Source of the DNA: Candidatus Babeliales bacterium
GTDB lineage: Bacteria > Babelota > Babeliae > Babelales > JBFXEV01
DNA: 64,000 nt
Reading direction: 5' to 3'
Assembly (NCBI GenBank): GCA_050179755.1
Contig: JBFXEV010000001.1
Location: forward strand, 521,994 to 585,993
Shown piece by piece: positions 1-63,567 of this stretch (positions are counted from its first letter, which is position 1; every line of letters starts with the position of its first letter). Position numbers and translations under genes: made by a program. The notes beneath the pieces are model-generated. The model made no database searches. It saw nothing but the letters and a program-made list of their open reading frames with translations, and was not told the origin of the DNA.

Positions 1-375
1 CTGCAAGGTGTGTAACTTATTGCCATTGGCAGCATCCCATAAACAAGCGGTGCGATCATTTGAAGCTGTGGCTACCATTGTTCCTTGTGGATTAATTGCA
101 ACTGAGATGATCCAATTAGCATGCTTCAAGGTGCGTAACTTATTGCCATTGGCAGCATCCCATAAACAAGCGGTTGTATCATCTGAAGCTGTGGCTACTA
201 TTGTTCCTTGCGGGTTGAATGTAATTGACCTGACCCAATCAGTATGCTGCAAGGTGTGTAACTTATTGCCATTGGCAGCATCCCATAAACAAGCGGTGTT
301 ATCATTTGAAGCTGTGGCTACCATTGTTCCTTGTGGATTAATTGCAACTGAGATGATCCAATTAGCATGCTTCAA
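1..375. repeat. 123-bp tandem repeat (3 units, A-B-A) encoding WD40 blades
   Basis: Units start at 1, 124 and 247; 1-129 and 247-375 differ at only 2 nt. Confidence 0.95.
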
Positions 376-576
376 CGTTGCCTGTTTATAGAACAAAGCA
401 GTTTGGCTAGCAATTCGTCTTGCAATTAAATCCTGAACGTCTTTGTGCTCAGGCTTAAGGATATTTGCCATATTAAAATATTCACAAAGTGATTTTGGTG
501 GTTTCTCCATACCAAATACACAGAGAGTATAGCTCATAGACAGGAGTAGCAAGTGATTAAACAGTTTGTTTTGCAT
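1..576 (-). CDS. Secreted WD40-repeat protein (3' end runs off the window; missed by ORF track)
   Basis: Hand translation from ATG at 576: MQNKLFNHLLLLSMSYTLCVFGMEKP...KHANWIISVAINPQGTMVATASNDNTACLWDAANGNKLHTL, with canonical H..S..D..WD WD40 units; frame is open to base 1. Confidence 0.9.
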   Translation of the reverse strand, partial: MQNKLFNHLLLLSMSYTLCVFGMEKPPKSLCEYFNMANILKPEHKDVQDLIARRIASQTALFYKQATLKHANWIISVAINPQGTMVATASNDNTACLWDAANGNKLHTLQHTDWVRSITFNPQGTIVATASDDTTACLWDAANGNKLRTLKHANWIISVAINPQGTMVATASNDRTACLWDAANGNKLHTLQ

Positions 577-820
577 GGGCTAGTTTTCTAGAGAAATTCC
601 ATTTGGGCATTAATTTATGGTAGACAATTAGCTGCTTGCTAATGCGACTGAATCAATTTTATCATATTCTTGAACAAGCGTGAAATTCTAATAAAAATAT
701 ACAGTATGGGCGAATGCAGTATTCTCGAATCATAACATGCACAATAAGTACGCCCCAAAAGAACAAGATTCTGCGGGGCGTTTGTTGCGTTATGCAATTT
801 TTTGTTGCACGCGTTGCGCC

Positions 821-2305
821 TTATGAGAGCACGTAATACCCTAATAACTGCACCCACATGTTAGTTTGGGCAAATGTTGTTTTGCGGTACGAATTATGGA
901 TACGCCGCTCTGGAAAGTATATTGATATACCTTGTGCTTTGCGTAAATTCTTGCCAACTTGATTTGCAATGACCACGTGCTCGATTAGTTCTTTGCCTGC
1001 AACCAGTTCTTGTTGCAACATGTCTTTTATTGCTTTTTCTCGTTCTGGGTTGGTGAGCTCAAAATGATTTAGGTTAGAAAGCAAGTTGCAATAAAGATGA
1101 TGCAAGTCAATATAACTTGGTTCATCAAAGTGTGTGCATAATAATTTGTGGCGACTAGTGCGCAATGCTTTTTTAACCGATTCATCACGCTGCTCTTTAA
1201 GGCATGTAATTAATAATGAAGCTACTGTACTTACGTTAGCTTCAAGTAAATTAAGATCTTTTAATTCTATTGCAGATTGCGTATAGTCATTTGTTATACG
1301 AGCATACGTTTCGTTATAAGCACTGACTATGTGCATTGCAAATTCTTTTTGCGTCATTGTTTTTTTAGCAAAGGGTGCAATAACTTTTGAATAATCATAA
1401 CCAGTTCCAAGTTCAACTTCTTGTGAGCCAACCATGTAATTTGCATATGGTTGCAAAATATTACCAATTTCTAGCATGGCCATGAGGCACGCATCAAAAG
1501 AAACGATTGCTAATTTTTCACCTCCAAGAAAATCTTGCGTGATTGTTTTGAGTGCAAAATTTAAATCTTGATTGGTTAAAAAATTACCGGTGCTGTCATC
1601 AAAGCAAATTCCACGCTCTGGTTCACCCTCTGATGATAGTACAAAATCAAGAAATGGTGTGGTTCGATCAAGTTCTACCATGCAATTTTGAGGATTAAAA
1701 CTAAATAGTTCTGAAGCATTAAGCATTCTGCGGCGCTCAATATCAATAATGCCTATGCCATGGTTCCACAAATCAATCATATAATTTTTTGCGGGAAAAT
1801 TTTCAATTGCCCAACGCGCGCAATCAATCAGTGTATGCGGACTACCTGAATCCATTTGCTGAGATGCAGGGTCATTGTAATTAGTAATTGTTAATTTATT
1901 TTCTTCGATATAGTAACGCAGAGTTACTTTCTTTTTGCGCTGAATAGTGGTATCTAATTGCACTACAATGTTTACATGTTCATTTGAGCCTATAGAAGCA
2001 AGTTGCATTAAATTTTTACGTGCAAAATTTGCAAGGTCGTTATCTGCTGCCATATAGATAATGATAGTCCAATCTTTTTTTTCTTTAAAACTAATATCAC
2101 CTGCTTCTTGAATTATTGATGGATTCCTTAAGACGAGGCTTGCATGATTCATAATTTGAGACTGTAGATTAAGCTCAAATACATCATCGTATACTAGTGC
2201 AGGGGTTGGTGCCCAGTCGCACTGATTGCTATGTGTTGCTCCTGAAATTAATGGCAGCAAAAATAGCATTGCGCTTCCAATGCAAACTTTACCTATAAAC
2301 TTCAT
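821..2305 (-). CDS. Clostripain-family (C11) cysteine peptidase, signal peptide
   Basis: WTIIIYMAADNDL, catalytic WNHG and FDACLMA motifs; start placed at MKFIG. Confidence 0.88.
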   Translation of the reverse strand: MKFIGKVCIGSAMLFLLPLISGATHSNQCDWAPTPALVYDDVFELNLQSQIMNHASLVLRNPSIIQEAGDISFKEKKDWTIIIYMAADNDLANFARKNLMQLASIGSNEHVNIVVQLDTTIQRKKKVTLRYYIEENKLTITNYNDPASQQMDSGSPHTLIDCARWAIENFPAKNYMIDLWNHGIGIIDIERRRMLNASELFSFNPQNCMVELDRTTPFLDFVLSSEGEPERGICFDDSTGNFLTNQDLNFALKTITQDFLGGEKLAIVSFDACLMAMLEIGNILQPYANYMVGSQEVELGTGYDYSKVIAPFAKKTMTQKEFAMHIVSAYNETYARITNDYTQSAIELKDLNLLEANVSTVASLLITCLKEQRDESVKKALRTSRHKLLCTHFDEPSYIDLHHLYCNLLSNLNHFELTNPEREKAIKDMLQQELVAGKELIEHVVIANQVGKNLRKAQGISIYFPERRIHNSYRKTTFAQTNMWVQLLGYYVLS

Positions 2306-2372
2306 CGCCTCGCTCCTTATTTTTAACAATGTCGTAAGTCATTGTTATACTACCTGATTTTTTAGGTAAGAT

Positions 2373-3527: not shown

Positions 3528-3555
3528 CTAAAAAGCATAATCTAAAGGATAAAAT

Positions 3556-4364: not shown

Positions 4365-4609
4365 GGTATTCCTTTATACTTTTTCTTGTTCTCTAATAAT
4401 AGCACAGGATCAATCGAAACAAAATATTAGTAAAAGGCAGCAAAAAGGGATTGCAAGAAGAAATATTGGTAATGCGCGATTATTTGGATAATAGTTTCTC
4501 AAAGAATATTTTTGCGTCTTTTTTTGATTTGCAATTTCAAAATTTATCGAGTATAACTGATGTGAATTTTCTATTGCACAAATTTAGGCAGCATAAGGAT
4601 TAGCAATAT

Positions 4610-9928: not shown

Positions 9929-9929
9929 T

Positions 9930-14565: not shown

Positions 14566-15201
14566 TTATAAATTGAGTTCCATGATAACCACTTTGCCAT
14601 AATTGGGTTGATCTTCTTCGTGTATTTTGTTAAAACCAACTTTTTCATAAGCTTTTATTGCAGCGATATTATCTGGATGTGGATCAATTATAAATTTCTT
14701 AACTGTATGGCGTTGCTTGATCAATGTTAAAAAGGCTTGCAACGTTTTGGTGCCATATCCTTTGCCAAGATATTCAGGATTTGCAATATAGAGATCCATG
14801 CCGTAGGTGCCCTCAGGATCTTTATTGCCAAAGGCATCTGGAATTTTATGCGCATCATAGTATTGAATAAAGCCGAGTGGTTCTTCATCAACAGAAAAGA
14901 TATATCCATGGACGTTGGAGTTATGCAGATTTTTTGTATATTTTTCTTGAAATTGTTCCCATGGTAACGCATCAAGATGCCACCATTTTTTTACATGTGG
15001 TGTGTGTACCCATCTAAAGAGCTGTGGAAAGTCAAATTCAGTAATGGGTTTAAAAGTAATATTCATTGTGCTCCGTTTTGATTCATAACTTTGTGCAGTA
15101 AGTATTATTTGTAGGTGCAATGCCACTAAAAAAATTACTATAGCGAGAGAATTAAAAGATAGAGTTAATCTTTTCACGTACTTAATCAAGTAGCTTATCA
15201 A
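14566..15201 (-). CDS. GNAT acetyltransferase, AAC(6')-Ib-like
   Basis: PHVKKWW, GFIQYY, GMDLYIA..YLGKGYG, IDP..N.AAIKAYEKVGF. Confidence 0.85.
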   Translation of the reverse strand: MISYLIKYVKRLTLSFNSLAIVIFLVALHLQIILTAQSYESKRSTMNITFKPITEFDFPQLFRWVHTPHVKKWWHLDALPWEQFQEKYTKNLHNSNVHGYIFSVDEEPLGFIQYYDAHKIPDAFGNKDPEGTYGMDLYIANPEYLGKGYGTKTLQAFLTLIKQRHTVKKFIIDPHPDNIAAIKAYEKVGFNKIHEEDQPNYGKVVIMELNL

Positions 15202-17986: not shown

Positions 17987-18066
17987 TGCTTTTATTGACT
18001 CGTGTTTGGTGATTGCATTAAAGTTAGAATAACAAAGTGATATAAAATAACCAGTCGGAGACAAAA

Positions 18067-18954
18067 ATGATAGTAAAATATTTATTGATACTAAGCAGCT
18101 TGTTGTTAAGTGTACAGCTTGATGCCATGCAAGCGCCAGAACAACCATTGCGTATAATGACGTTTAATGTGCGTAGAGCTGGCAAAGAAAGCGCCGACAA
18201 CATGCAAAAAAGTTGGACGAACCGCAAACCGCTTGTTGTTGCAGCTCTTAAAGCGTTGCAGCCTGATATATTTGGTTTGCAAGAACCAACCATTGAACAA
18301 ATTCAAGATATAGAAAATGGCCTTGGTGCGGAGTATGCATGGGTTGGTAAAGGCCGCGGTAAAGAATGGTGGGGAAAATCAGAAGATGAATATAACCCAC
18401 TCTTTTATAAAAACAAACGATTAGAACTTTTAGATTCTGGCACGTTTGTGCTTAATCCATCAGGCGCTTTAAATTGGAGATTTCTATGGAGCCCTAGAAC
18501 CGTTGGCTTGCTCACGCGCATTTCCACCTGGGGCAAATTTAAAGACAGGTTGAATGGCCAAGAATTTTATGTATACAACACACATCTTGATCATAAGTTT
18601 GCAGCAGCGCAAGTGCATGGCATGCAAGCAATTTGCACCAAGATTGGTGAATGTACTGATAAGTTACCGGTAATTTTAATGGGTGATTTTAATACTGAAT
18701 TAACGCCGGCCTTGCTCGAGGGTGAGCTCAAAGATTTTGCCAATACTAAAGCTCTTGCGCAAAATCGAGTTGGCCCAGATCAAACGCGTACGGGGTGGGA
18801 TTTTAAAGAGCTTAAGGACATTGATCATATTTTAGTGAGTAAGCAAGCTCCGGTGGTGGTCAAAGAGCATCGTGTGGTGCAAGAGGAAAGCCGTGAGCGT
18901 ATGCCCAGTGATCATAGGCCAGTGCTTGTTGATCTTCTGTTTATAAAAAAATAA
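18067..18954 (+). CDS. Endonuclease/exonuclease/phosphatase (EEP) family protein, secreted
   Basis: MTFNVR, DIFGLQE, NTHLD, MGDFN, IDHI, SDH motifs; signal peptide. Confidence 0.92.
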   Translation: MIVKYLLILSSLLLSVQLDAMQAPEQPLRIMTFNVRRAGKESADNMQKSWTNRKPLVVAALKALQPDIFGLQEPTIEQIQDIENGLGAEYAWVGKGRGKEWWGKSEDEYNPLFYKNKRLELLDSGTFVLNPSGALNWRFLWSPRTVGLLTRISTWGKFKDRLNGQEFYVYNTHLDHKFAAAQVHGMQAICTKIGECTDKLPVILMGDFNTELTPALLEGELKDFANTKALAQNRVGPDQTRTGWDFKELKDIDHILVSKQAPVVVKEHRVVQEESRERMPSDHRPVLVDLLFIKK

Positions 18955-19709: not shown

Positions 19710-20780
19710 TTAGAATGTCATATTAAATGCAACGTACGGGCCAGTAAGTGCAAAGTTGCTTACATTATTGCGGAACGTTCTTGCAAACACACCCACAGAC
19801 GCTACCTCTGCATTAACATTTGACACTTCACTGCCCACATCTATTTGCTGTAAGGCGTTAAAGTATACGCGTGCCTCATAACCAACTTCTAAGCGAGCCG
19901 TATAAGTGCACCAGAAGCGAGCCTCATAAGCGGCACCGATTCTTTGTTCAAACACAGGTACAACAATAGTCATTTTGTCAGTTATCACTGTTTGTAAGTT
20001 AGGATAGGTTATCGGCCCAATGGGTGGCGCTGGTTGCACAGGAGATACGGAGCTAAACAAAGTATCATTTTTTCGTTTACCTATAAGAATCGCTGCTGCG
20101 AGTTTGCCAGAAAGACTTAAGCCACAAAATATATCATAGTCAAAGCAAGCGCCGAATTCAGGACCGGCACCTTTAAAACTTATGGGTGCAATTATGGAGC
20201 GCGTAGTGTTGCCATTAGTGCTTGAAAAGAAGCTGGTTGTTGTTTGTTTAAGGGAGGTAAAGTTTACACCACCAAAAAAGTGAGTTTCTAAGTTGCCAAA
20301 CTCAACAAATTGCGCAACGTTTACATGTACTGTGTTAAAATTGAATTTTGTTCGTCCTGTTGAATTTTGATAAGGTGTTGCTTCTGGTCCAATTTCAAAA
20401 AAGGGCCCTATCATGTCTGTAGGGGCAGGTGCAGTGTGAGAATTTTCTGATGTAGAATTAAAATGCTCCCAATTGATGCCTAAGCTTCTACAATCATTAA
20501 AAAGGCTTGAGCGCACGCCCAGGTCAAAGCCAAAATGATATGTAGGATGTATGTCATAAATTGTCCAACGTGGCGAAGGTGCTGGTAGCGTGGTAGCCTG
20601 TGCTGCATAATGCAAGTTGCTCGTGCTCGGCTTAAGAATCAATGCTCTAAATTGAACAGCAAACGTATAGGGAATGCTGCTTACAGAAACATTGCCACAT
20701 GGCCTACAGTCATCATAAGCACGTGCTGTGAGGGCAGGACAAACGGCGAAGGCTATTATATAATAGAGACATTTTTTCAT
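19710..20780 (-). CDS. Lpg1974-like (Legionella MOMP) outer-membrane beta-barrel
   Basis: Signal peptide, P.YHFGFDLG, F.GAGP.FG, LEVGY, C-terminal GPY..F. Confidence 0.75.
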   Translation of the reverse strand: MKKCLYYIIAFAVCPALTARAYDDCRPCGNVSVSSIPYTFAVQFRALILKPSTSNLHYAAQATTLPAPSPRWTIYDIHPTYHFGFDLGVRSSLFNDCRSLGINWEHFNSTSENSHTAPAPTDMIGPFFEIGPEATPYQNSTGRTKFNFNTVHVNVAQFVEFGNLETHFFGGVNFTSLKQTTTSFFSSTNGNTTRSIIAPISFKGAGPEFGACFDYDIFCGLSLSGKLAAAILIGKRKNDTLFSSVSPVQPAPPIGPITYPNLQTVITDKMTIVVPVFEQRIGAAYEARFWCTYTARLEVGYEARVYFNALQQIDVGSEVSNVNAEVASVGVFARTFRNNVSNFALTGPYVAFNMTF

Positions 20781-25028: not shown

Positions 25029-25628
25029 ATGAAAACCAATATATCAATATTTATAGTTTTCTCTGCTCTAATTTTTACTCATTCCTCAATCGGTATGATT
25101 CTGCTGGAAAAAAAAGTCAAAATACGTAATTCTGATTTTGGAATGGGCAAACCATATGAAGAAAAAAAACGAAAGTTTAAACGTGAGTTTGTAGAAGCAG
25201 TTAATGATGGAAACCTACTCAAGGTTCTACATGCAAAATGCAAACTCGCAGCATGTTATGATAAAGATGATTATCAACGTGCACAAGTAGACAACAGAAG
25301 AAAGATTTTACTTAATAAAGCTGCTGCTTTCTCGAGTGTTGCCGCTGCAGCTACGCTTGCGGGTTTTGCTGTAGTGAAGCCCAGAATATGGCCAATTCTT
25401 CAATCAAGTATAACAATAGCGAGTTGTGCGGGTGCTGCGTATTATGCGAATAAAGTACATAAAATAACGCCAAAGAATGCTTTTGATCCCGAGAAAAAAT
25501 GGTTGGACAACGAATTAAAATTATTAAAAACAGCTCCCGTTCAAGCTTTTTTTGCACAACGTGAGACGGAACGTAACAAAGAGCTTATTCAATTACTTAA
25601 AGAAAAACAAACAACAAAGCATGCTTAA
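25029..25628 (+). CDS. Hypothetical protein (signal peptide plus hydrophobic hairpin)
   Basis: RBS aaggagg; 199-aa ORF. Confidence 0.7.
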   Translation: MKTNISIFIVFSALIFTHSSIGMILLEKKVKIRNSDFGMGKPYEEKKRKFKREFVEAVNDGNLLKVLHAKCKLAACYDKDDYQRAQVDNRRKILLNKAAAFSSVAAAATLAGFAVVKPRIWPILQSSITIASCAGAAYYANKVHKITPKNAFDPEKKWLDNELKLLKTAPVQAFFAQRETERNKELIQLLKEKQTTKHA

Positions 25629-29455: not shown

Positions 29456-30067
29456 TTATGATTTTGCAGGTGTTGCTGGCTTTGCAGCAGGTTTTACCGC
29501 TGGTTTATAATTGCTATTAAGCTCGTCAACTATCATTTGTGTGATATCGATGCGGTCTGCAACAAATATGGTGCTACCAGCAAGCACAACGTCAATGCCA
29601 AGATTCTTGGCGATTTTTTGCGTGGTAGTTTCAATTTTCTTGAGCATATCCATTTGTGCCATTTGAGCGCGTTGCTGAGGAATTTCTTGCGCCGCTTGTT
29701 GTTCAATCATAATTTCATTTTTAAGTGACAATAGCTTCTTTTGTCTTTTTTCGCGAGCTTCACCACTTAATACGTTTGCGCCAGCACCACTTAATTCTGA
29801 TTCAATTTTTTGTTTTTCAGATTCCATAGCCTGAATGTTTGCTATACGCTTTTCCATGTCAGCTTTAATTGATTGTTGAAGATCAGCGCCTTCTTTTGAT
29901 TTATCAAATACAGCATAGATATCTACCACTGCAATTTTTACATTAGTAAAGTCTTTTTTAGAAGTCGCAGCACTTGTTGCGGGTTTAGGTGTATCTACAG
30001 CCATTGCCGGGCACGTGGCAACAGTAACAAGTGATAATGCCGTTATTGAATAGAGAAGTTTTTTCAT
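29456..30067 (-). CDS. skp: OmpH/Skp periplasmic chaperone
   Basis: Signal peptide, KIAVVD, coiled coil, DITQ.IV..LN. Confidence 0.8.
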   Translation of the reverse strand: MKKLLYSITALSLVTVATCPAMAVDTPKPATSAATSKKDFTNVKIAVVDIYAVFDKSKEGADLQQSIKADMEKRIANIQAMESEKQKIESELSGAGANVLSGEAREKRQKKLLSLKNEIMIEQQAAQEIPQQRAQMAQMDMLKKIETTTQKIAKNLGIDVVLAGSTIFVADRIDITQMIVDELNSNYKPAVKPAAKPATPAKS

Positions 30068-30151: not shown

Positions 30152-30565
30152 TTAGTTAGATCGCTTTAGAAATGACCTACCTTTATCTACAGCATTCAGG
30201 GGAGGTTTTGGTTGACAAACTTTAGTTCGGCTGCTTACTTTTTGCTCCTTTTCATATTCCGTAATTTTGCCTTTTAAAAAGTTAACAACGGCAAGTTGAG
30301 GCATTACGGAAGAAAGAGTAAGTGCTTCATTGCCTGGTTGCAGTTGATAAGAATCGGTGCAATATTGGCCAGTTTTTGTTTTCTTTACACAGGTTTGAAA
30401 AACCGTTGCTTGCAAGTGCCGTTTTTGCGCGAGAGCAATAATGTTTTTTTCAGATTCATACACTTGAATCGTTCCATATTCCGGATGCTCAATGTGCATC
30501 ATGCCGAAAGCGGTGGGCAAACTTATAATGTGCGTGTATAGTATTATTAATAATTGTTTTTTCAT
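30152..30565 (-). CDS. Secreted hypothetical protein
   Basis: Signal peptide ending TAFG|M. Confidence 0.65.
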   Translation of the reverse strand: MKKQLLIILYTHIISLPTAFGMMHIEHPEYGTIQVYESEKNIIALAQKRHLQATVFQTCVKKTKTGQYCTDSYQLQPGNEALTLSSVMPQLAVVNFLKGKITEYEKEQKVSSRTKVCQPKPPLNAVDKGRSFLKRSN

Positions 30566-33651: not shown

Positions 33652-36246
33652 TTATATAGTTTTGTGCCGGACTAAGTATTTTCTTATTTCTTCAATTAAA
33701 AAAACAGGGCTTGCAAGCATTAGCACGAGCAGCCATTGTTCAATAGTTAAAGAGACGGTGTTGAATACTTTTTGGAGTATAGGAATATAGAGAATGGCAA
33801 GTTGCAAGATAAGCACAAGTACGGTTGCTGCAATAAGCCAAAGATTAGAGAATGGAGACATTTCAAGCAATGAGTGATGTTCTGATCTGCAATTCCATGC
33901 ATTAAACCATTGGCATGTTGCAAGCGTGGTCATTGCGAGTGTCCGAGCAAGCGTTAAATTAATGGGTGCGTAATAAGCAAATATGCCAATAGAGACGATA
34001 CCCATAGGAATAGACATTAAAGCAATTTTGAACCATGATGTAGCATCAAGCAAAGAATCTGAAACCGTATGGCGCGATTGTAAGATATCATGCTCTTGAG
34101 GTTCTTGAGAAAGTGCTGCATCAAGAAATCCATCAGTGACTAAGTTAATCCAAAGAATTTGTGCTGCAAGAATAGGCAATGGTAAGTTGACTATGAAAGA
34201 AAATAGTATGAGCCAAACTTCTGCTAAATTGGTGGTAAAAAAGTATAAAATCACGCGACGTAGCGCCAAAAAAATGGTGCGCCCTTCCTTTATTGCTTCT
34301 ATAATGCTTGCAAAAGAATCATCAAGCAAAATAAGGTCGGCAGCTTCTTTGGCAACTTCAGTACCAATGCCACCCATGGCAATGCCCAAATCGGCTGCAA
34401 CAAGTGCTGGTGCATCATTTACGCCATCACCGGTCATGGCAACGCGATTGCCTTGTTGTTGAAATGCTTGTGCAATGTGCAATTTTTGTTCGGGTGTGAC
34501 GCGTGAAAACACGGTAGTGGTAGCAAGTACGTTTTCCAGATTTTCACCGTTTTTTAATTCAGATCCATCAACAGCCGTATCGCCTTCTTGGAATATGCCA
34601 ACTGAGCGTGCTACATAGAGTGCAGTATCTTGGTGATCACCGGTTGCCATAACAATACGGAGCCCTGCTGCACGTGCGTTTTCAATCATATCTTTAACGT
34701 CAGAACGAATGGTGTCTTGAATCCCAAATAAACCTAAAATAGTAAGATCATGAAGTAGGCTCGGAAGATCTTTGGGTTGTACGGTTGTTTCATTAAATTC
34801 GGTAGTATCAATTTTCCGTTGCGCTGCGGCAACGGTGCGTAATCCTTTTTCAAGCATAATATCAAGAGCAGATTGTGCATTCTTAGTGTTGTTGTTTGCT
34901 AAGGCAAAAATAACTTCGGGTGCGCCAGTTACAAATAAATAATACGTATCATTATGTTTGTACAGCCCTGCTTGATAACGCAGTTCAGTGCTAAAAGGCA
35001 TATGCACTATGGTTTGATATTCATTTTGTGCAGTTACTAAGCCTGTTTTTTTGGCAAGTACGTCAATCGCAGCTTCGGTGGGATCTCCTTTTATGTGGAA
35101 CGTATCCGTTTCGGGTTGGTATTCAATTTCTGCTTGATTTAAAAGACCGCCGGCTATGATCAATCGCTCGAGTGTTGGATCTGATTCTGCTAGAGTTATT
35201 TTTTTATTATCGAATAATAGATTACCCTCTGTTTTATATCCTTGGCCGGTTACGTTATAAAATTTATCATGTGCGTAAAGTGATGTTACTATCATTTCAT
35301 TACGCGTAAGTGTTCCGGTTTTATCTATCATCAATATGTTAGTGCGACCTAAACCCTCAATTGCCTGCATACGCTTAGTTATTACATTTTTCTTGGCCAT
35401 GCGGTAAGCGCCGCTTACAAGTGTGAGAGTAAAGACGACGGGCAACCCTTCAGGGATCACGCAAATAAAGAGCGCAGTAATAATAACAAGAAGTTCACGT
35501 AACGGCTTACCCATAAGCAGGCCAACTATAAAAAGGCATACGCACATTATAAAAATGGCAATGAGAATGCGCTGTGCAAGTTGATCAATAGATTGTTTTA
35601 GTGGCGTATCGGTTTGTATTGTTTCTACAATAATATTTAGTTTGCCAAGTTTAGTATTTGGGCCTGTAGCAATGATTATTGCTTTGCCATGCCCTGTTAA
35701 TATGTAGGTGCCACTTGATAGATTATCATTTTCTTCTTTTGCTACCGGTGTAGATTCACCTGTTATAACCGCTTCATCAATAAGTATATTGTCTGCCTCA
35801 ATGAGTGTTGCGTCGGCAGGAACTTTTTCGCCCGCGTGAATAATTATAATATCGCCAGGCACCAATTCTTCTGATGGCACAATATCGGTAACGCTATCGC
35901 GCACTGTTGCAGTTTCTTGCGTAAAATATGTTTGCAAGCTTAAAAGTATTGATCGTGTGCGCCCTTCTTGAATAGTTCCGAGTAGTGCGTTAAAAAGGAG
36001 CACGCCGGTGATAATAAAAGCATCCATGCGGTGCCCCAATGCAAAAATAAGGGCTGCTGCAAGCACCAAAATGTATATGAGTGGATTTATAAATTGCCGT
36101 AAAAACACAAAAATAATAGATTCAGGAGCTTTGCGTGGTAATGCATTTGGCCCAAATTGTTTTTGTAGTTTTTGAACTTGCTCTTTTGTTAAACCAGTTT
36201 TTGGGTTGGTTTGTATGTTATTCATTATCGTGCGTTGTACCCTCAC
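33652..36246 (-). CDS. Cation-transporting P-type ATPase (P2A, Ca2+-type)
   Basis: TGES, IPEGLP, DKTGTLT, GDPTE, MTGDGVNDAPAL, QILWINLVTDG. Confidence 0.95.
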   Translation of the reverse strand: MRVQRTIMNNIQTNPKTGLTKEQVQKLQKQFGPNALPRKAPESIIFVFLRQFINPLIYILVLAAALIFALGHRMDAFIITGVLLFNALLGTIQEGRTRSILLSLQTYFTQETATVRDSVTDIVPSEELVPGDIIIIHAGEKVPADATLIEADNILIDEAVITGESTPVAKEENDNLSSGTYILTGHGKAIIIATGPNTKLGKLNIIVETIQTDTPLKQSIDQLAQRILIAIFIMCVCLFIVGLLMGKPLRELLVIITALFICVIPEGLPVVFTLTLVSGAYRMAKKNVITKRMQAIEGLGRTNILMIDKTGTLTRNEMIVTSLYAHDKFYNVTGQGYKTEGNLLFDNKKITLAESDPTLERLIIAGGLLNQAEIEYQPETDTFHIKGDPTEAAIDVLAKKTGLVTAQNEYQTIVHMPFSTELRYQAGLYKHNDTYYLFVTGAPEVIFALANNNTKNAQSALDIMLEKGLRTVAAAQRKIDTTEFNETTVQPKDLPSLLHDLTILGLFGIQDTIRSDVKDMIENARAAGLRIVMATGDHQDTALYVARSVGIFQEGDTAVDGSELKNGENLENVLATTTVFSRVTPEQKLHIAQAFQQQGNRVAMTGDGVNDAPALVAADLGIAMGGIGTEVAKEAADLILLDDSFASIIEAIKEGRTIFLALRRVILYFFTTNLAEVWLILFSFIVNLPLPILAAQILWINLVTDGFLDAALSQEPQEHDILQSRHTVSDSLLDATSWFKIALMSIPMGIVSIGIFAYYAPINLTLARTLAMTTLATCQWFNAWNCRSEHHSLLEMSPFSNLWLIAATVLVLILQLAILYIPILQKVFNTVSLTIEQWLLVLMLASPVFLIEEIRKYLVRHKTI

Positions 36247-36754
36247 CTATATGTTCAAGTTCGTCATTAAGCTCTTCAATATCGCTGCCAATAGCTTCAA
36301 GCAATTGGTCTCGTTCATCAAGCGCATCTTCTTCATCAGAAACCATGTTTTTTTCTTTATCGGTAAAATCTGGATTGTTAGAAATAAAAGTGGTTAAGCC
36401 TGGAACTTTGTGTTTACGTTGTGATTTTGAGTATCCTAAGCTAGTAAGAAGAGTTGTTTGCTCAGGAGTGATTAATTCTTTTTTTATACATAAAAATGGG
36501 GTAAATGCAGAAACTTTCTCTAAAAATCCTTTCCAGAGTGATTCGGGCCGCGCATCGCGTTCTCTTATTGCCGTATCACGCTCAGTCGTGAGTGTTTGTA
36601 TGCGGGTGTGCTGGTAATAATTGCCACAGGCAGATACGGCAAGTGCCGTGCTAACCAATGCTAACGAGCCACAAACCAAAGTCCATTCATCCATTGTTTT
36701 TGTTGTTGGTTGTGCAAGCATTATTGTTGCGCAAAGCAAGGAAAGTTTTTTCAT
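36218..36754 (-). CDS. Hypothetical protein, paralog of 36826..37491
   Basis: Signal/TM; FLEKVSAFTPFLCI..LIT..LGY block shared with neighbour. Confidence 0.7.
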   Translation of the reverse strand: MKKLSLLCATIMLAQPTTKTMDEWTLVCGSLALVSTALAVSACGNYYQHTRIQTLTTERDTAIRERDARPESLWKGFLEKVSAFTPFLCIKKELITPEQTTLLTSLGYSKSQRKHKVPGLTTFISNNPDFTDKEKNMVSDEEDALDERDQLLEAIGSDIEELNDELEHIGEGTTHDNE

Positions 36755-37708: not shown

Positions 37709-38143
37709 ATGAAGCACATAACCTATTTTTTTCTGTATTTCATGTGTGGCGTAAGCGCCATGCGTGCAGAAATTAGCGCACATCCTATTGAACGCGGCCC
37801 ATTTGAAGTAGAATTTATTAATAAAACAGAAGATAAAATAAATATTTTTGTACGTACTGCAAGTTTTGATCAAGAAGCTGCACGTGAGTATGTACATTTT
37901 AAGGATGGCAAATGGGTGTATAGTGCTCAACCAGGGCCGCTTGAAACGCTCATTGCTCCGGGGTTTTCTTCACACACGGTGCCTGCAGGAGCAAGCTTTA
38001 AAAATAAGTTTGCGCATATGCCTACACTCATTACGGTGAAAAGTGCCGGAGAAGAAGCTGCCAAATCGGTGCCAGGAACTTTTGCGCTCAAAGCGGTGAT
38101 CATCACGGAAGACCCTACCGGTTTAGTGCTCAATTTTAAGTAG
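37709..38143 (+). CDS. Secreted hypothetical protein
   Basis: RBS gagg; signal peptide ending GVSA|M. Confidence 0.7.
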   Translation: MKHITYFFLYFMCGVSAMRAEISAHPIERGPFEVEFINKTEDKINIFVRTASFDQEAAREYVHFKDGKWVYSAQPGPLETLIAPGFSSHTVPAGASFKNKFAHMPTLITVKSAGEEAAKSVPGTFALKAVIITEDPTGLVLNFK

Positions 38144-39575: not shown

Positions 39576-40256
39576 ATGCAATATTGTAAGTATTTAGTAT
39601 TGGGTATGTTGGGTGGTTCACTGTTTAATGTTATGCAGCCAATGGATCAGGCGCAACAACCAACTACACGAAATGATATTTTTAGAATTATTCGGGAAGC
39701 TGAATCTTTAGCGCAATCCAAACCTGGGAGCGCTTTAAGCTGGTTTCAACAAGCCTATTATGGTGCAGAATCGCGCTCATGGGATTATGGTCTTAAAGAC
39801 GGTAAGCTTGCATTGGTATTGCTTAAAGGGGCTGATTCTGAGCAAAAAGATGTTTGTGACATTCAATTGTTAAAATTATTGTTAGATAAGGTAGATTTAA
39901 TTCGCAGGGATACTGACGGCCCAATAGAAGAACATGCAACGTTGCTTTGTGCAAAGGTAGCGCATCGGCTTATGCTTGCCTATTGCGGCAGTTTGGCGCT
40001 TTCGCAAGACCTTGATATGGTATGGAAAGCAGAATCGCTTGCAAAGGCTACAAGAGAATTGTCGGATGCGGAAAAATTGGAAAAGGCACATGAGAAGGCG
40101 TTCGCAGGTGATGAACGTACGCGTGAAATGGGTGAGAGTCAAGTGCGTGAGCTTGAAGAACTAAAACAAGCAGAAATAAAATTTATGTTAGAACAGAGAG
40201 AAATTAGATTGAATCGGTTAAAAGAAAAAGAGGCTGCGCAGGAAGCGGATGAATAA
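39576..40256 (+). CDS. Secreted helical hypothetical protein
   Basis: Signal peptide; charged coiled-coil C-terminus. Confidence 0.7.
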   Translation: MQYCKYLVLGMLGGSLFNVMQPMDQAQQPTTRNDIFRIIREAESLAQSKPGSALSWFQQAYYGAESRSWDYGLKDGKLALVLLKGADSEQKDVCDIQLLKLLLDKVDLIRRDTDGPIEEHATLLCAKVAHRLMLAYCGSLALSQDLDMVWKAESLAKATRELSDAEKLEKAHEKAFAGDERTREMGESQVRELEELKQAEIKFMLEQREIRLNRLKEKEAAQEADE

Positions 40257-41303: not shown

Positions 41304-42323
41304 TTGAAGTTGCAAAATAATACGTCATTTAAACAAGCGTCTCTTGGTATACTTTTATTTTTTATGTGCACAATCATGCGCTCAATGGATCATGCATATA
41401 TTAGCGCTTGTGTAGCACAAGATAGCAACAGTGATCTTGCGTATGAGCAACTACTATCGGCTATTTATAATGATCGCATAGAAGTTGCAAGATCTGTGTT
41501 TGCACAAAGTGTTGCCATTGATTTTGAATCTCCACAGTATAGGGATTTGTGGCATAGTGTGCTGGAGTTAAAACACTGTGAATTTATAAGTTTGTTTTTA
41601 AAACACGGGGCATTACCTAATGTGTTATTTCCTGTAGAGAATAATGGATTGCCTTATGCGCCATTATCTGTAGCATTTTCATTTTGTGATGTTGCCAGTG
41701 CTCAATTGCTTATTGATCATGGTGCGGATTATAAATTTGCTGTTGCGCCAGGTAAAACTGTATTATGTGGTTGTATTAATTGGCTTATTACGGAAGCTGA
41801 TGCTGGCTTTGATGTTGCGGCATACTTGGAAATATTGAGGCTCATGTTGCATAGCGCACCTTTTAGGCAAGTGCATAAAGAAGTTTCTAATCTTTCGCGT
41901 CAAAGAATAAAAACAGCTTTGCTTACTTTTAATCGTTTTCGTGTGCCAACAGTAGTTGTTCCTAAGATTTTGGCTTATGTGCCTGAAGATATTTGTAGTC
42001 CGGGCCAGCTTAGATATGTTTTGTATGATGCTGGTATGAAAGATTTACTTGCTCAGTGCCCACTTGCTTGGTTTAAAATGGTTTATCAAAAGTTGCCTGA
42101 TAAGAAAAAAAGGAGGTTCATAAATAAAGTGGTGCCAGGGGTTGCGCAATATCGGTTAAATAGTATGCAAGCAGTATTATCTGCGCAAGCTTTTAAAGAA
42201 CTTGATATAAGCAGCTTAGATCCTAAGCTTATAGCTTTGCTTGATTCAGGCAATGTGGAACAGCATCGTGCTGCGATTATGCAGAACATTATGAAAGCAT
42301 TTGTTGACTTGTCTGGTGATTAG
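41304..42323 (+). CDS. Ankyrin-repeat protein
   Basis: FLKHGALPN, APLSVA..AQLLIDHGAD, GKTVL; signal-like N-terminus. Confidence 0.75.
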   Translation: MKLQNNTSFKQASLGILLFFMCTIMRSMDHAYISACVAQDSNSDLAYEQLLSAIYNDRIEVARSVFAQSVAIDFESPQYRDLWHSVLELKHCEFISLFLKHGALPNVLFPVENNGLPYAPLSVAFSFCDVASAQLLIDHGADYKFAVAPGKTVLCGCINWLITEADAGFDVAAYLEILRLMLHSAPFRQVHKEVSNLSRQRIKTALLTFNRFRVPTVVVPKILAYVPEDICSPGQLRYVLYDAGMKDLLAQCPLAWFKMVYQKLPDKKKRRFINKVVPGVAQYRLNSMQAVLSAQAFKELDISSLDPKLIALLDSGNVEQHRAAIMQNIMKAFVDLSGD

Positions 42324-43807: not shown

Positions 43808-45340
43808 ATGAAATATTCATATTTATTTGGTAGTATTGGTATATTTTTTGTTATTTACAGTGCCTTTGGCATGTTTGAGCCTAAAGAGCTTTCAGCAGAT
43901 TGGCGCACGCTTGCCATACAAGATTTAGAAAAAATCCATCAGCAAATTACAGATATCCATCCCGGTGTTTTGGACCAAGATCAACTGTGCCCTCATTTTA
44001 ATGTATGGTATACGCAAGGATATGATCAAGCGCTTAAGCGAGCAGAGCAAGTGAGTGACGTGCATGGCTATGAATATGCTTTGCGTTATTATCTTAATGG
44101 TTATCAAGACAGACACGTTGCGTTATTTATGAAAAAGGAAGCATGTAAAGCTATTGCTGATCGTGCAATTACGTATCGATGGCCAGGTTTTGTTATCTCG
44201 TGGCGTAATGGCAAGTTTATTGTTTCTGCACATACTCAGCAACAAGATCAATTTGATCAGTTACCACCGCTGGGTGCTCAATTAATTACAGGTAATGGTA
44301 TTTCCCCTCAAGAATTAATGCATCAAAATATATTTCCATTCTATGGTAATGCTCAGTTTGAAGCAGATTGGATACGTTATACGCCTTCTTTGCTAATAGA
44401 TCAGCATAATCCATGGGCAGCCTCTATTTCTGAATGTGAATTTTTGATTGATGATAAGCCAGTTACATTTCCTTTAATATGGCAATCAGTTACTGATGAA
44501 ACATTCTCGTTACTTAAAAAAGCACAAGAATGCATGGAATATGAGCAACATGCGCAGTTAACATATTTTGATGAAGATTGTGTGTGGGTGCGTATACCTT
44601 CTTTTTATTTGAATACAGAAGAAGTGGTTGCAGCTATGAACAAATTGCTGTGTGATCTGGAAACGATCCGTACTGCACGCATTATAGTGCTTGATATTCG
44701 TGGAAATGGTGGTGGGGCAGATGCGTGGGGAGATAAAATAATTCTTCATTTATTTGGAACTACTGTTTACGACACTGTTAAACAAAAGCAACATGGCCAA
44801 AAGTTTGATGAACATCGAGTTTCTAAGTGCTTTATCGAAAGCACGCAAAAACATTTTGAAAATTCATGTGCGCCAGAAAATATGAAGGCTCAATGGCAAG
44901 AAATGCTTACTAATTTAAAGCAAGCATATAATGACAAAAAACAGTTTAGTCGTTTGATATATGATGAAGTGGATATGGAAGATCGTTCACGGGCCGAGGT
45001 GCAATGTACAACAAACCCTGTGAATGGAACTGTCTACTTGTTAACTGATGGTGCTGTTTGTAGTGCGTCATTAAGCTTTGCAGATCTTTGCCTTGGTGTA
45101 CCAGAAATTATTCATATAGGTCGCCCAACTGGCGGTGACACTGTTTTTATGGATTGTCTTTTTGCTCCTACTGAAAATAACAATTTTGAAGTATTGCTTC
45201 CATCACTTATTAGGCGGAAACGTATTTGTAGAGAAAACAATCAATGTTATGTGCCAAAACATACATTTACTGGTGATATGCGCGACACACAAGCATTGCA
45301 ACAATGGGTAAAAGACCTTACAAACAAAGTTGTTTCATAG
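43808..45340 (+). CDS. S41-family peptidase, secreted
   Basis: D.HPG, DRH, WPGF, VLDIRGNGGG, LTDG..CSAS..F. Confidence 0.8.
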   Translation: MKYSYLFGSIGIFFVIYSAFGMFEPKELSADWRTLAIQDLEKIHQQITDIHPGVLDQDQLCPHFNVWYTQGYDQALKRAEQVSDVHGYEYALRYYLNGYQDRHVALFMKKEACKAIADRAITYRWPGFVISWRNGKFIVSAHTQQQDQFDQLPPLGAQLITGNGISPQELMHQNIFPFYGNAQFEADWIRYTPSLLIDQHNPWAASISECEFLIDDKPVTFPLIWQSVTDETFSLLKKAQECMEYEQHAQLTYFDEDCVWVRIPSFYLNTEEVVAAMNKLLCDLETIRTARIIVLDIRGNGGGADAWGDKIILHLFGTTVYDTVKQKQHGQKFDEHRVSKCFIESTQKHFENSCAPENMKAQWQEMLTNLKQAYNDKKQFSRLIYDEVDMEDRSRAEVQCTTNPVNGTVYLLTDGAVCSASLSFADLCLGVPEIIHIGRPTGGDTVFMDCLFAPTENNNFEVLLPSLIRRKRICRENNQCYVPKHTFTGDMRDTQALQQWVKDLTNKVVS

Positions 45341-51290: not shown

Positions 51291-51665
51291 TTATTCTCCT
51301 GCGATAGTCATGGTGCCATCATCTGATTGAATTATGGTTATTTTTTTAGTTTTGCTTTCTACAAGTTTTTGCCATTCTTGAAGCAATTTAATAAATTGAT
51401 CGATTGAAATTTTGAAAAATGCGCCACCATCGGGTTCATCGGCAAATAAAGATCCAATTAAAATAAAATTATTTTTTTTCTCAAGCCATGCGCTATTAGT
51501 TCCGGTTATGAATTCATGAGGATTTAAGGCCCATTTTGTAAATGTAGGAATTGAATGTAATCGAATATCATTTAAGAAATAACCAAGATATCCAATTTTC
51601 CCTACATATTCATCAATTGTATAAGTTTTGAAGTTATCTGGGAGTGTTATTAATAATTTTTGCAT
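51291..51665 (-). CDS. Putative immunity protein of the EndoU toxin
   Basis: 124 aa; ATG overlaps toxin stop (TAATG). Confidence 0.7.
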   Translation of the reverse strand: MQKLLITLPDNFKTYTIDEYVGKIGYLGYFLNDIRLHSIPTFTKWALNPHEFITGTNSAWLEKKNNFILIGSLFADEPDGGAFFKISIDQFIKLLQEWQKLVESKTKKITIIQSDDGTMTIAGE

Positions 51666-53953: not shown

Positions 53954-54114
53954 AGCCATCCTAGATGCGAACTTTCTAATGCATAGCGTTGCTTCATGCT
54001 TACCATACCATAAATTATGATCCAAGCAACTCAAGACCCTTGTCTTTGCCTTGCAAAAAAATATACAGTAATAAAAAAGAGAGTGCCTATACTAAATCTG
54101 GGGAAATGGAGATT

Positions 54115-60706: not shown

Positions 60707-60808
60707 AAAGGAATAGCTGGAATAAAAGTCATTTAATCGACATCTAGAATATTGTGTGAACTTAAATAATAATCCGCAAGCTATATTAAGCATTAAATCA
60801 TCATTTTG

Positions 60809-61585
60809 TTACTCAACATCAAGGCAATCAATATACTGCATATAATAAGCAACCATTTTTACCACATCTTTGATGTGTTTATTCTTTAGATATTCATCTG
60901 GATCAGGAAGTTCGGAAGCATTTAATCGATTGTCTGCTAAAACTTGCCTTGTTGCAGACAATGCAACTTGTCTGCGAAAAACTGTTCGTTGCGTTTCCGG
61001 TGTTAACTTAAGAGTAACCTTATTGCTGCAAAGAGTATTAAGCATTGCAAGGTCAAGAACCACGTGTTGTTTTTCAGAATTTGTAAATGTAACATGCACC
61101 AGGGCCCGTTTATCTTCAAAAGTTGATTGAGCTTGATTAAATAGCGCATGTACTTGCACTTTTAAAATTGCTTGTTGATTGCCTGTCAACTGTTGCTTGC
61201 CTAAATTATTCTCGAAGGTAACTCTTTGAGTATTTGCACTGAAATGTATGCGTGTTGGTATCATGGTGATACGGTTGTTATTCATGCGTGCTGCTACTGC
61301 GGCTGCATGCGCTGTTAAAACTTGATTGAATGTATCCATGATTGATTTTTCGTAGCGCTGATCAAGTTGAGCAGCAATTACACTGCCTGGCATGTTTACG
61401 TCAATACAATATTCTATGCTTTTTTGAGGTAAGAGCCTTCTGACAAGAGTGACAGTACCCATCATTGAAAAAGTATTGGGATCACTCTCTTGTCTGGCCG
61501 AAGGCGGATTCATGGCTATTGTTGCAGGGGATATTAATAAAACAAGAGATAAGAATACTTGAGCTAGAGCATTTTTGAAAAACAT
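60809..61585 (-). CDS. Secreted hypothetical protein, probable paralog of 61616..62368
   Basis: Signal peptide; C-terminal RL..LPDP..Y..DVV.M..YY. Confidence 0.7.
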   Translation of the reverse strand: MFFKNALAQVFLSLVLLISPATIAMNPPSARQESDPNTFSMMGTVTLVRRLLPQKSIEYCIDVNMPGSVIAAQLDQRYEKSIMDTFNQVLTAHAAAVAARMNNNRITMIPTRIHFSANTQRVTFENNLGKQQLTGNQQAILKVQVHALFNQAQSTFEDKRALVHVTFTNSEKQHVVLDLAMLNTLCSNKVTLKLTPETQRTVFRRQVALSATRQVLADNRLNASELPDPDEYLKNKHIKDVVKMVAYYMQYIDCLDVE

Positions 61586-61615
61586 GGAGGTTCCTAAAAT
61601 TGTGTGAAAAAAAAC

Positions 61616-62368
61616 TTAATCAATATCCCCAATATCTTGGGTTGTTAAATAATATTTAAACAATGTAACTAAATCTTGCGTATATACTTTTCTATAATCA
61701 GCTTCAGGGTCAATGCGTTCGGCCAATCTGCCTGTTGCAAGTTGGTCATGGGCCTTCTGAGCTGCATTAACATATGATTGCTGAATGAGCTGGCTTCTTG
61801 TGCTATCATTGACTTGTAATTGATTTTGATCGGGAAAGATACAACGTAATCTGTCTACAGAAATCACATATGGCTTTCTACAACCTGTTGTTGGAAACAC
61901 GTATAATGAAAATGGGTTGGTTGTTAAAGTATTTTGTTTAGGGTCATGTGAACATGCCACGCGTGTTTCAAAAAAAGCTTGCACAGTATCACTGATTTGA
62001 TGCGTGCCATATTCTTCTCTTAATATAAACTTACCGGTATCAGGCTCATAATAAAAAGCTGACGGTATAATTTTCATTAGTTCAAAGTTTTGCGGAGTCA
62101 GATTATTTAGGTATGTAACAAGTACTTTTTGTAATTTACCTTTAAGCTCTGGGGCTCGCGATAGAAAATGCGCCTTTTTGGCAGCATCGGTGATTGCTTC
62201 TTGTGGTGCATCGATTTGTACTTGTACTTTTATCATCTTTCCAAGTGGCAAATTTGGCAAGCTGATTGCCACAGTGTCGGACACAAAATTTTTTGGTGCA
62301 TCCATCGCATATGCTGTAAATGAAAATGAAAAAATAAAAATGTAACGGTGCGTTATTTTAAAAATCAT
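61616..62368 (-). CDS. Secreted hypothetical protein, probable paralog of 60809..61585
   Basis: Start MIFKIT; C-terminal RL..IDP..Y..DLV.L..YY. Confidence 0.7.
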   Translation of the reverse strand: MIFKITHRYIFIFSFSFTAYAMDAPKNFVSDTVAISLPNLPLGKMIKVQVQIDAPQEAITDAAKKAHFLSRAPELKGKLQKVLVTYLNNLTPQNFELMKIIPSAFYYEPDTGKFILREEYGTHQISDTVQAFFETRVACSHDPKQNTLTTNPFSLYVFPTTGCRKPYVISVDRLRCIFPDQNQLQVNDSTRSQLIQQSYVNAAQKAHDQLATGRLAERIDPEADYRKVYTQDLVTLFKYYLTTQDIGDID

Positions 62369-62582
62369 ATTATTTTCTTGAATCGTCTTTAGACCACAAA
62401 TTGGCATGCGTTTGGCTATTTAAGCAGATTGTTTTCTTAATTTTTGTCGTGCTTGTGCTTCATTTTTTAGGTATCTTGCTTTCATGTTCATAGGTTAACA
62501 TATGCCATTGCTATAGGCTTGTGTGATAAAAAAGTACAAATGCCGAGTACGATTATTTTAATATTCATAAGAATGCTATAGG

Positions 62583-62967
62583 TTATTTCTCTAATAAGTC
62601 TTTAATTTGTTGAAATTCTTTTTGCTTTTCTTGCAACGTGCTTTCTACTTCAGCTGCTAAAACAGATAAACCATCTTGCTTTTCTCATAAATCAGCTTCA
62701 ACTATTGCTCCAGAAATTTTTACTTCATCGCGCTTGGTGCGTAGCACTGCATCAAAACCTTCTCTTGTTTTGTTTATTGCATCGCGTTTTCTTCGTACTT
62801 CGCGAACGAGTGTAAAATTTATTATAATTTGCATATGAGCTTGATACTCAAGTTCCTCATCAAGGCTAGATTCGCAGTTTGCATTTGGGTTATTGTCCAT
62901 AGCGCTTATTGGGTAAGCTGTAGCGACTAGGAGGCCAAAAAGACATAACAAAAATTAATTTTTGCAT
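62583..62967 (-). pseudogene. Disrupted secreted coiled-coil protein gene
   Basis: RBS plus ATG at 62967 is out of frame with the TTG ORF at 62951; in-frame TGA at 62685-62687 is followed by 33 more sense codons to TAA at 62583. Confidence 0.65.
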
Positions 62968-63084
62968 TGAAGATCCTTTAGATGAAAATTTTTTGAATAT
63001 TTTCAATATGCCATACATTAATTATTTTTACAATGAAAACATTGTATTAAAGGGATTTAAAAAGGGGTCAATTATTTTCTTGGT

Positions 63085-63567
63085 TTATTTTTCGGGATTT
63101 GTAGCTTTTCTACGCGCGTGCTCTCTGTCAAGGGCCTCTTCAATAAGAGTTAATAGCTCTTCCCTATATTTTTTTTCTTCTGATGGTCCACAATATGGAG
63201 GACAATCTTTAAAAGTTTCCATTTCTTCATCAACACAAATTTGTGCCAAGTTCATGAGTTCTGCTTTTCTGTTTTGCCATCTTTCTTCAATAGTTGCTTT
63301 ATCGCAAATTTGTGCTAAGTCCATGAGTTGTGCATTTTTGCTTTGCCATTTTTCATCAATAGCTGATTCTGCAGTTGCGCTCATAGTTGCATGCGAGGTT
63401 GCGCCAGATGCTCTATCTGATTTTGCAGTACGATTCATGATTCGCAGAGAACGCCTTAGCGTTTTAGCTTTTTTTATTGCTCTAGTAGGGTTTGCATCCA
63501 TAGCATTCACTAGGCTGGTTAAGCTGATTAAAGAACTTAAAATGAATAAGCAAATTATATTTTGCAT
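63085..63567 (-). CDS. Secreted hypothetical protein with a 23-aa tandem repeat
   Basis: Start MQNIICL; AIDEKWQSKNAQLMDLAQIC / TIEERWQNRKAELMNLAQIC, 69-bp period. Confidence 0.75.
   Translation of the reverse strand: MQNIICLFILSSLISLTSLVNAMDANPTRAIKKAKTLRRSLRIMNRTAKSDRASGATSHATMSATAESAIDEKWQSKNAQLMDLAQICDKATIEERWQNRKAELMNLAQICVDEEMETFKDCPPYCGPSEEKKYREELLTLIEEALDREHARRKATNPEK

Follow-up and report, generated by a model that had tools for sequence, protein, structure and literature searches.

The window analyzed here is a 64,000-nucleotide stretch of the genome of a Candidatus Babeliales bacterium (assembly GCA_050179755.1, contig JBFXEV010000001.1, positions 521,994 to 585,993 of the forward strand). 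It encodes 14 proteins whose hydrophobic N-terminal leader runs straight into a methionine, which would become the first residue (+1) of the mature protein if the leader were removed as a signal peptide. All 14 junctions, listed in the original prediction by the starts of their open reading frames (ORFs) rather than by their Met codons, were present when we read the translations and the DNA. Pfam families were found for only three of the genes, namely WD40, Exo_endo_phos and Peptidase_S41.

The WD40-repeat protein (1..576, minus strand; E = 1e-27) has an ORF that runs off the window. Its leader, MQNKLFNHLLLLSMSYTLCVFG, is followed by Met-Glu, with the Met codon at 510-508. The gene contains near-identical repeat units (NPQGT[MI]VATASND.TACLWDAANGNKL), which suggest a recent internal duplication. 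The endonuclease/exonuclease/phosphatase (EEP) family protein (18067..18954, plus strand) has a leader of 20 amino acids ending LDA, then Met-Gln with the Met codon starting at 18127. In the Peptidase_S41 family protein (43808..45340, plus strand) the leader ends AFG and precedes Met-Phe-Glu (Met codon at 43871).

Four of the remaining genes, all orphans, lie on the plus strand. A protein of 199 amino acids (25029..25628) has a leader ending SIG before Met-Ile (Met codon at 25095), and this hydrophobic +2 residue is atypical. The leader of a 144-amino-acid protein (37709..38143) ends VSA before Met-Arg (37760), and that of a 226-amino-acid protein (39576..40256) ends MQP before Met-Asp (39642); a search of 5.8 billion proteins found no homologues of the latter. 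The fourth, of 339 amino acids (41304..42323), starts with TTG and has a leader ending MRS before Met-Asp (41385). On the minus strand are orphans of 137 amino acids (30152..30565; leader ending AFG, then Met-Met-His; Met codon at 30502) and 679 amino acids (30590..32629; GTG start; LFC, then Met-Asp; 32578), the latter with relatives that carry beta-propeller Pfam tags. A 178-amino-acid orphan (36218..36754; TKT, then Met-Asp; 36694) continues into a second hydrophobic stretch. Further minus-strand orphans have 258 amino acids (60809..61585; TIA, then Met-Asn; 61513), 250 amino acids from the ATG at 62368 (61616..62368; AYA, then Met-Asp; 62305) and 160 amino acids from the ATG at 63567 (63085..63567; VNA, then Met-Asp; 63501).

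The last case, also on the minus strand, is a small gene (62685..62967) whose leader ends ISA before Met-Asp (62900) and which is ended by an in-frame TGA at 62685. Its ATG is out of frame with the remainder at a T-run near 62940, and the in-frame ORF begins with TTG at 62951. The surrounding region (62480-62990, minus strand) holds decaying tandem copies of small tagged genes: some 34 further coiled-coil-like codons follow the TGA, and a leader-only remnant (MNIKIIVLGICTFLSHKPIA, then MAYVNL and a stop) occupies 62568-62488. Two adjoining tagged genes also have an upstream element in common (63570-63660 and 62970-63060, minus strand; TTTTCATTG.AAAAAT...TGGCATATTGAAAATATT), probably a promoter that was duplicated with the genes.

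The leaders had been described as signal-peptide-like, which holds for the hydrophobic segment in 14/14. One leader is frameshifted, as noted above, and several have atypical residues at -1 and -3, as in the 36754 orphan; in the 39576 orphan the -1 residue is Pro. Basic n-regions are missing from the leaders of the 32629 and 63567 genes, and those of the 18067, 36754 and 41304 genes have a charged residue in the c-region, near the junction. Only 6/14 passed our strict signal-peptide heuristic. The Met is missing from about 16 further signal-peptide-like proteins of the window, so it is present in 14 of about 30 cases, against about 0.6 expected by chance. Envelope residents had been said to lack it as well. 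This stands for the Legionella_OMP-type porin (19710..20780, minus strand; Pfam E = 8e-45), and is ambiguous for the Skp/OmpH chaperone (29456..30067, minus strand; Pfam OmpH E = 1e-19), where either CPA before Met-Ala or AMA before Val could be the junction.

We examined the +1 residue across the whole genome, a single contig of 1,525,295 bases (39% GC; G000 in comparisons), in which a crude gene call gave 1441 ORFs. The signal-peptide heuristic used n-region charge, an 8-residue hydrophobic core, the -3/-1 rule and the hydropathy of +2 to +7, and never the +1 residue. Gene calls and classes made with our own heuristics include both false members and misses, and some counts were made by eye. 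The heuristic flagged 485 sites, loosely and with membrane anchors among them, and 108 of these had Met at +1, compared to 2.1% Met among all residues (binomial p = 8e-60 vs a 3% rate). This frequency of 22.3% contrasts with 0-6.2% at each of positions -6 to -1 and +2 to +6. A stricter set gave 86/354. The signal also appeared without a cleavage predictor: among 440 N-termini bounded by charge, 106 had Met immediately ahead of the first charged residue that follows the hydrophobic stretch, while the preceding two positions were Met in 14 and 23. As judged by eye, many sites predicted as non-Met have a Met 2-5 residues downstream with a good site before it, so the true count is higher than 108.

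A search anchored on Met returned 178 junctions. The 150 with A, G, S, C or T at -1 form the Met class used below, which has some false members, such as a C11 peptidase in which the Met is part of the hydrophobic region itself. We estimate that the genome encodes 100-150 Met-tagged proteins, or 7-10% of ORFs. Counts of the DNA pattern GCNNNNGCNATGGAN against shuffled-order controls (25 vs 9-10 in G000), meant for scoring large numbers of genomes, had too little power, and this measure was dropped.

Could the pattern have arisen by chance, or as an artefact because cleavage sites were picked by eye? The poor -1/-3 residues and missing n-regions of several window cases would fit such an explanation, as would the false members of the relaxed class. 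However, the predictor that is blind to +1 and the predictor-free measure agree. Moreover, nine other Babeliales samples, which double as same-phylum controls for the heuristics, gave a pooled 1/188, and the C11 peptidases, taken as a negative-control family, showed no clear leader-Met case in 68 N-termini. Chance or artefact thus has next to no probability, and we confirm the +1 Met as a real, genome-wide observation.

We next consider what kind of leader precedes the Met. Leaders of the Met class and of the 205 proteins in the non-Met class were indistinguishable in length (mean 21.3 vs 21.6 amino acids), hydropathy and charge; the Met-class leaders had a maximum 10-amino-acid hydropathy of 2.59 and a charge of +1.55 over the first 8 residues. 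Over the 178 Met-anchored junctions the -1 residue was A in 88, G in 26, S in 17, C in 11 and T in 8 (150/178), and the -3 residue was mostly A, L, V, I, S or T. With their basic n-region, hydrophobic h-region, length and small neutral residues at -1 and -3, the leaders are canonical Sec-type signal peptides, of the signal peptidase I kind. Other known leader types were rare or not enriched. The lipobox of signal peptidase II matched only 2/150 Met-class junctions, and the RR of twin-arginine translocation (Tat) leaders was found in the first 12 residues of only 6/150. The type IV prepilin pattern (G before F/M-T-L-I-E) occurred in 0/150, the Met standing after the hydrophobic segment. Within about 40 residues of the signal sequence, a pattern like the Plasmodium export element (PEXEL) was found in 6/150 Met-class and 5/205 non-Met proteins, and RxLR in 1/150 and 1/205.

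Two Peptidase_S26 genes outside the window (G000:C1:1044143-1045009, plus strand, and 1506717-1507577, minus strand) encode signal peptidase I. These paralogues are 62% identical, and most sampled relatives have one. Their active-site box reads SM-E-T/K-TM; the usual box is SM-x-PTL. A second signal peptidase was ruled out as the cause of the tag and is not required, because the tagged genomes of one related family (f2, see below) have a single LepB match each.

Every +1 Met is by definition an in-frame ATG, and one alternative raised with the original prediction was that these genes have dual starts. Translation from the upstream start would yield the exported form, and translation from the Met a cytoplasmic form with the same sequence as the processed protein. 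In four tests, the +1 Met lacked the features of a start codon. First, a Shine-Dalgarno (SD) core motif (GGAG, GAGG or AGGA at -18 to -4) preceded the leader start in 81/150 Met-class genes (54%), 100/205 non-Met genes and 213/584 long genes without a signal peptide. It preceded only 8/150 +1 Met codons (5%), which is the background at internal Met codons (108/2286). Second, the predicted mRNA folding (-20 to +23) was weak at leader starts (-2.4 and -3.1 kcal/mol), while at the +1 Met (-6.6 kcal/mol) it resembled that at non-Met cleavage codons (-6.4; p = 0.17); ordinary internal Met codons gave -5.45. Third, TTG or GTG starts 19/150 Met-class leaders, and these codons were not enriched at +1 (5/25 Leu, 2/15 Val). 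Fourth, D or E follows the +1 Met in 46% of the Met class, compared to 1% D and 4% E at position 2 of 956 genes without a signal peptide, where K (15%) and N (9%) are the frequent residues. Initiation without an SD motif does occur in this genome, since 46% of leader starts lack the core, which leaves dual starts some room. Taken together, the tests make them quite improbable.

The other alternative was an evolutionary footprint, in which signal peptides were grafted upstream of old start codons and the Met is a leftover without a role. The EEP protein of the window speaks to this directly. Nearly all of the 120 homologues listed carry leaders. In distant ones, few of which are named (Bacteroidota-type, Elusimicrobia), the leader runs straight into the first conserved strand (AQS, then LKVMTYNIRL). 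A leader followed by Met-[D/E/Q/H] was seen by eye in 22 of the 35 best homologues and in 6 of the other 85, and a variable linker of 5-15 residues then precedes the strand. Since distant relatives have signal peptides directly before the domain, the family was already exported when it gained the Met, and Met and linker were added later. Among the homologues that keep the junction, the flanking residues vary. In a quick IQ-TREE phylogeny of the mature domains (113 rows, a few with wrong automated labels), the window protein falls in a clade of 15 rows with an SH-like approximate likelihood ratio (SH-aLRT) support of 99, comprising 13 Met-type rows, one whose record lacks the leader and one non-Met row. 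The automated Met labels required 14-16 changes on this tree, compared to 25.7 when shuffled, and 0/500 shuffles were as low.

Other comparisons point the same way. The 32629 orphan has four homologues at 46-48% identity, and all five proteins keep Met-Asp or Met-Glu after the leader, although the leader and residues +3 to +8 differ. Between two genomes of the same genus within f2, all three orthologue pairs compared (two at 46-49% identity, one at 79%) keep the Met while -1, -3 and the residues from +2 onward change; one f2 paralogue has Ala followed by Asn in place of Met. Among 288 distant paralogue pairs of G000, anchored at the predicted site, identity was 27% at +1 and 5-11% at +2 to +11, with 50% at -1 and 26% at -3. 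Together, the EEP, orphan, f2 and paralogue comparisons indicate that the +1 Met is under selection.

Some observations do fit a footprint. Many carriers are young orphans, with 92/149 lacking a Pfam family. Public gene calls sometimes begin at the Met: two records of the 32629 family do so, including the public record of the window protein itself (662 amino acids, vs 679 from the GTG), so automated gene calls can drop the signal peptides of tagged genes. In addition, six pairs from different protein clusters share upstream-plus-leader DNA, for example the genes at 201215 and 480707 (81% over 100 nucleotides). Conversely, the clearest grafts in the genome, which are exported GAPDH, GlnA, SurE, adenosine deaminase, dNK and HIT proteins, have no +1 Met. 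The acidic +2 context is unlike the start context of this genome, and the Met lies exactly at +1, not at scattered offsets. Met and linker are also an addition to an already exported EEP family, and across a clade the Met persists although the adjacent residues change. We therefore disfavour the idea that leaders were grafted in front of ancestral starts and regard it as unlikely.

The shared upstream DNA deserves a separate remark. Three unrelated, effector-like genes outside the window (G000:C1, starting at 201215, 480707 and 825967) have about 100 nucleotides of upstream-plus-leader DNA at 74-81% identity, which suggests that leaders are occasionally exchanged between genes. A mobile promoter-plus-leader cassette was rejected as a general cause of the tag, as only 19 similar pairs were found, 6 of them between unrelated proteins. 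A recombination site in the DNA at the junction was likewise rejected, since the codons used at the junction differ little from those of the genome at large, except for GCC at -1 Ala (25% vs 13%).

To see which proteins carry the tag, we compared Pfam families between the classes, using 149 of the 150 Met-class proteins (E <= 1e-4) and 200 of the 205 non-Met proteins (with a cutoff of E <= 1e-7 for the first 100 and E <= 1e-10 for the other 100). The Met class comprised 92 proteins without a family, 29 with ankyrin, 10 with WD40 and 2 with TPR domains, and 16 others; a PLA2_B-plus-ankyrin protein was tallied under ankyrin. The others include Exostosin_GT47, Gly_transf_sug, PLD, PAP2 and S41, as well as evident false signal peptides (DsbD, FtsX, DivIC, DNA polymerase III delta' and Pyr_redox_2). 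Of the 200 non-Met proteins, 121 were without a family, 13 had ankyrin, one WD40 and one TPR domains. This class held the envelope set, with BamD, OmpA, secretin, porin, FKBP, two thioredoxins, a binding protein, DegP-like, SurA-like and AmiC-like proteins, M48, M16, SOD and BatD. It also held the exported enzymes that are normally cytoplasmic, among them CYTH and histidine phosphatase proteins in addition to those named above.

Ankyrin, WD40 and TPR proteins were therefore concentrated in the Met class (41/149 vs 15/200; Fisher p = 6e-7), and by eye about 6 of the 15 non-Met repeat proteins are really leader-Met cases that were misfiled owing to K, R or E in the leader. Classic envelope families showed the opposite trend (about 1/149 vs about 19/200; Fisher p = 2e-4). 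By our own heuristic the +1 Met is essentially missing from them, as it is from the exported cytoplasmic-type enzymes. Proteins without a family did not differ between the classes (92/149 vs 121/200; p = 0.83). The carriers had been called unrelated, and they largely are: the 150 mature parts form 103 BLAST clusters, one with 37 members and 92 singletons, and a few expanded families therefore cannot explain the tag. As to the proposal that the tag is an effector hallmark, these results back it by association.

Cytoplasmic-type enzymes with leaders and no Met tag were found at eight loci, four in the window (19031-19597, HIT; 23524-24342, CYTH; 16913-18148, Ham1 plus MazG-like; 14566-15201, GNAT) and four outside it (G000:C1:988472-989593, GAPDH; 419850-421307, glutamine synthetase; 1071795-1072766, adenosine deaminase; 1073165-1074136, SurE). 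The window also encodes two large exported proteins that end in toxin-type domains, Ntox35 (4610-6370, plus strand) and bacterial EndoU (51665-54034, minus strand). A small ORF directly after the EndoU gene (51291-51665) may encode its immunity partner.

We then looked at the distribution of the tag in samples from other genomes of the phylum. The 100 that were available belong to one order and 14 families (f-numbers); G000 is alone in its family. The samples were small, with 20-100 kb per genome. The trait was strong in G001 of f2 (8/24 predictor-free, about 11/24 by eye) and moderate in G005 of f3 (3/31, about 8 by eye), and about 10 of 13 ankyrin ORFs had the Met in G079 of f9. The pooled 1/188 given above, also predictor-free, comes from families f5, f6, f7 and f10-f15. 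In G041 (f11), Ala follows the leaders of the ankyrin ORFs, with Met in 2/11, and the ankyrin ORFs of G047, G069, G045, G019 and G007 have no Met after the leader. In one G040 (f6) family the +1 residue varies between F, M and A. Five EEP orthologues, all from f3, had readable N-termini, and one of these (G072) has the Met. This uneven distribution indicates that the trait is lineage-specific and was gained or lost within families.

Beyond the Met itself, the junction has a short motif: S/T at -4, A/L/V at -3, often Y/F/H at -2 and A/G/S at -1, then Met, D/E/Q/N at +2 and P/S/Q at +3, after which composition returns to background. The prediction that the mature termini are mostly Met-Asp, Met-Glu, Met-Asn or Met-Gln extends from the window to the genome, with 99/150 in the Met class compared to D/E/N/Q at +2 in 69/205 of the non-Met class. 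Hydrophobic +2 residues were correspondingly scarce (11/150 vs 44/205). In eukaryotes, Met followed by D, E, N or Q is the substrate class of the N-terminal acetyltransferase NatB, and Met is stabilising unless a hydrophobic residue comes next.

One possible function, which we regard as doubtful, lies on the host side. Mimicking a NatB-class N-terminus and avoiding an N-degron would keep effectors stable or acetylated in the host cytosol. Both +2 trends are as this would predict, and the carriers are of the ankyrin and WD40 types, which are expected to act on host proteins. However, the stabilising residues also include Ala, Ser, Gly and Thr, which suit signal peptidase better than Met does, and host mimicry thus leaves the Met unexplained. 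On cargo of this kind, related lineages have Ala or Ser at +1. NatB, moreover, acts co-translationally, and the NatB and Met N-degron rules apply to nascent host proteins, whereas here the substrate would be a delivered bacterial protein. The bias toward D, E, N and Q at +2 fits host mimicry and a sorting tag equally well.

Overall, we consider it most likely that the Met-acidic mature N-terminus is under selection and serves as an effector tag. Because it is conserved and occurs mostly on host-mimicking repeat proteins and orphans, it probably marks proteins sent to the host. For the mechanism we favour, at a probability of roughly 40%, a sorting tag that is read after Sec export. Leaders are translated from their own SD-preceded start codons, and signal peptidase I would most likely cut after the small -3/-1 pair, at the predicted site directly before the Met. 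Cleavage would expose a mature N-terminus of Met and then Asp, Glu, Gln or Asn. In certain Babeliales lineages purifying selection maintains this Met. It marks effector-like proteins directed to the host (those with ankyrin, WD40 or TPR repeats, eukaryote-like enzymes and orphans) and not envelope residents, and as a tag it would separate proteins that leave the periplasm for the host from those that stay. We favour such a tag because the two groups share an export route and a kind of leader yet differ by the tag, and because bacteria are known to put sorting information right after the cleavage site.

Several observations weigh against this interpretation. The motif spans only 2-3 residues, with an information content of 1.0 bit at +2 and 0.4 at +3. 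Cleavage before the Met is something we infer from our own heuristic, and in about 16% of Met-anchored junctions the residue at -1 is one disfavoured by signal peptidase I. Two S41 orthologues of the 43808 protein (G091 and G002) are without the Met, as are about 9 ankyrin, WD40 or TPR proteins with signal peptides in G000 itself. The C11 peptidases, with no clear case in 68 N-termini, likewise run counter to the evidence for conservation. Most sampled Babeliales families lack the trait or show it rarely, and their ankyrin proteins still have signal peptides, followed by Ala or Ser, so export of such cargo does not need the Met in general. Neither a sorting tag nor host mimicry explains how these lineages manage without it. 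Finally, no reader machinery for the tag was found.

Full-text literature searches returned no earlier description of a +1 Met tag. The nearest biological precedent is Chromulinavorax destructans, also of the Dependentiae, where a putative signal peptide was reported in 44% of coding sequences and 78% of ankyrin proteins and Sec was proposed as the export route (PMC6561590). Phylum and cargo, signal-peptide ankyrin and orphan proteins, are the same as here; the portion of that account considered here does not mention the +1 residue. The Met tag of the present analysis is limited to certain lineages of the order.

As mechanisms, the closest analogies are the post-cleavage sorting residues of bacterial lipoproteins and, in Plasmodium, the N-terminus that PEXEL cleavage produces. 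In lipoproteins, residues after the cleavage site, often acidic, decide the compartment, as in Lol avoidance by +2 Asp and the lipoprotein export signal of Bacteroidota. These proteins differ in their lipidated +1 Cys and their use of signal peptidase II, whose lipobox is nearly absent here. The Plasmodium PEXEL, or host-targeting signal (HT), and the oomycete RxLR are likewise short motifs just downstream of a signal sequence; cleavage leaves a defined N-terminus whose second residue is E, Q or D, and the motif is a mark of hundreds of proteins targeted to the host. Unlike the tag described here, which starts at the predicted signal-peptidase site, they belong to eukaryotic pathogens and involve a second protease and an RxLxE/Q/D consensus. 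Genes with in-frame alternative starts for exported and cytoplasmic isoforms also have an ATG exactly at the mature start; the +1 Met differs in showing none of the initiation-site features examined.

Tentatively, a subclade of the Dependentiae may route more than 100 Sec-exported effectors from the periplasm into its protist host by means of an exposed Met and an acidic or amide residue, as a bacterial counterpart of PEXEL. A tag that can be read from sequence would list the candidate effectors of uncultured parasites, about 100-150 proteins in this genome, and comparing lineages with and without it would give an entry to the sorting machinery. It would also supply a defined N-terminus for probing the host's acetylation and degradation rules on delivered bacterial proteins. 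For annotation, it matters that gene callers sometimes start tagged genes at the tag Met and lose the signal peptide. More broadly, the tag touches on the question of how Dependentiae and other Sec-dependent intracellular bacteria part host-directed proteins from those of their own envelope.

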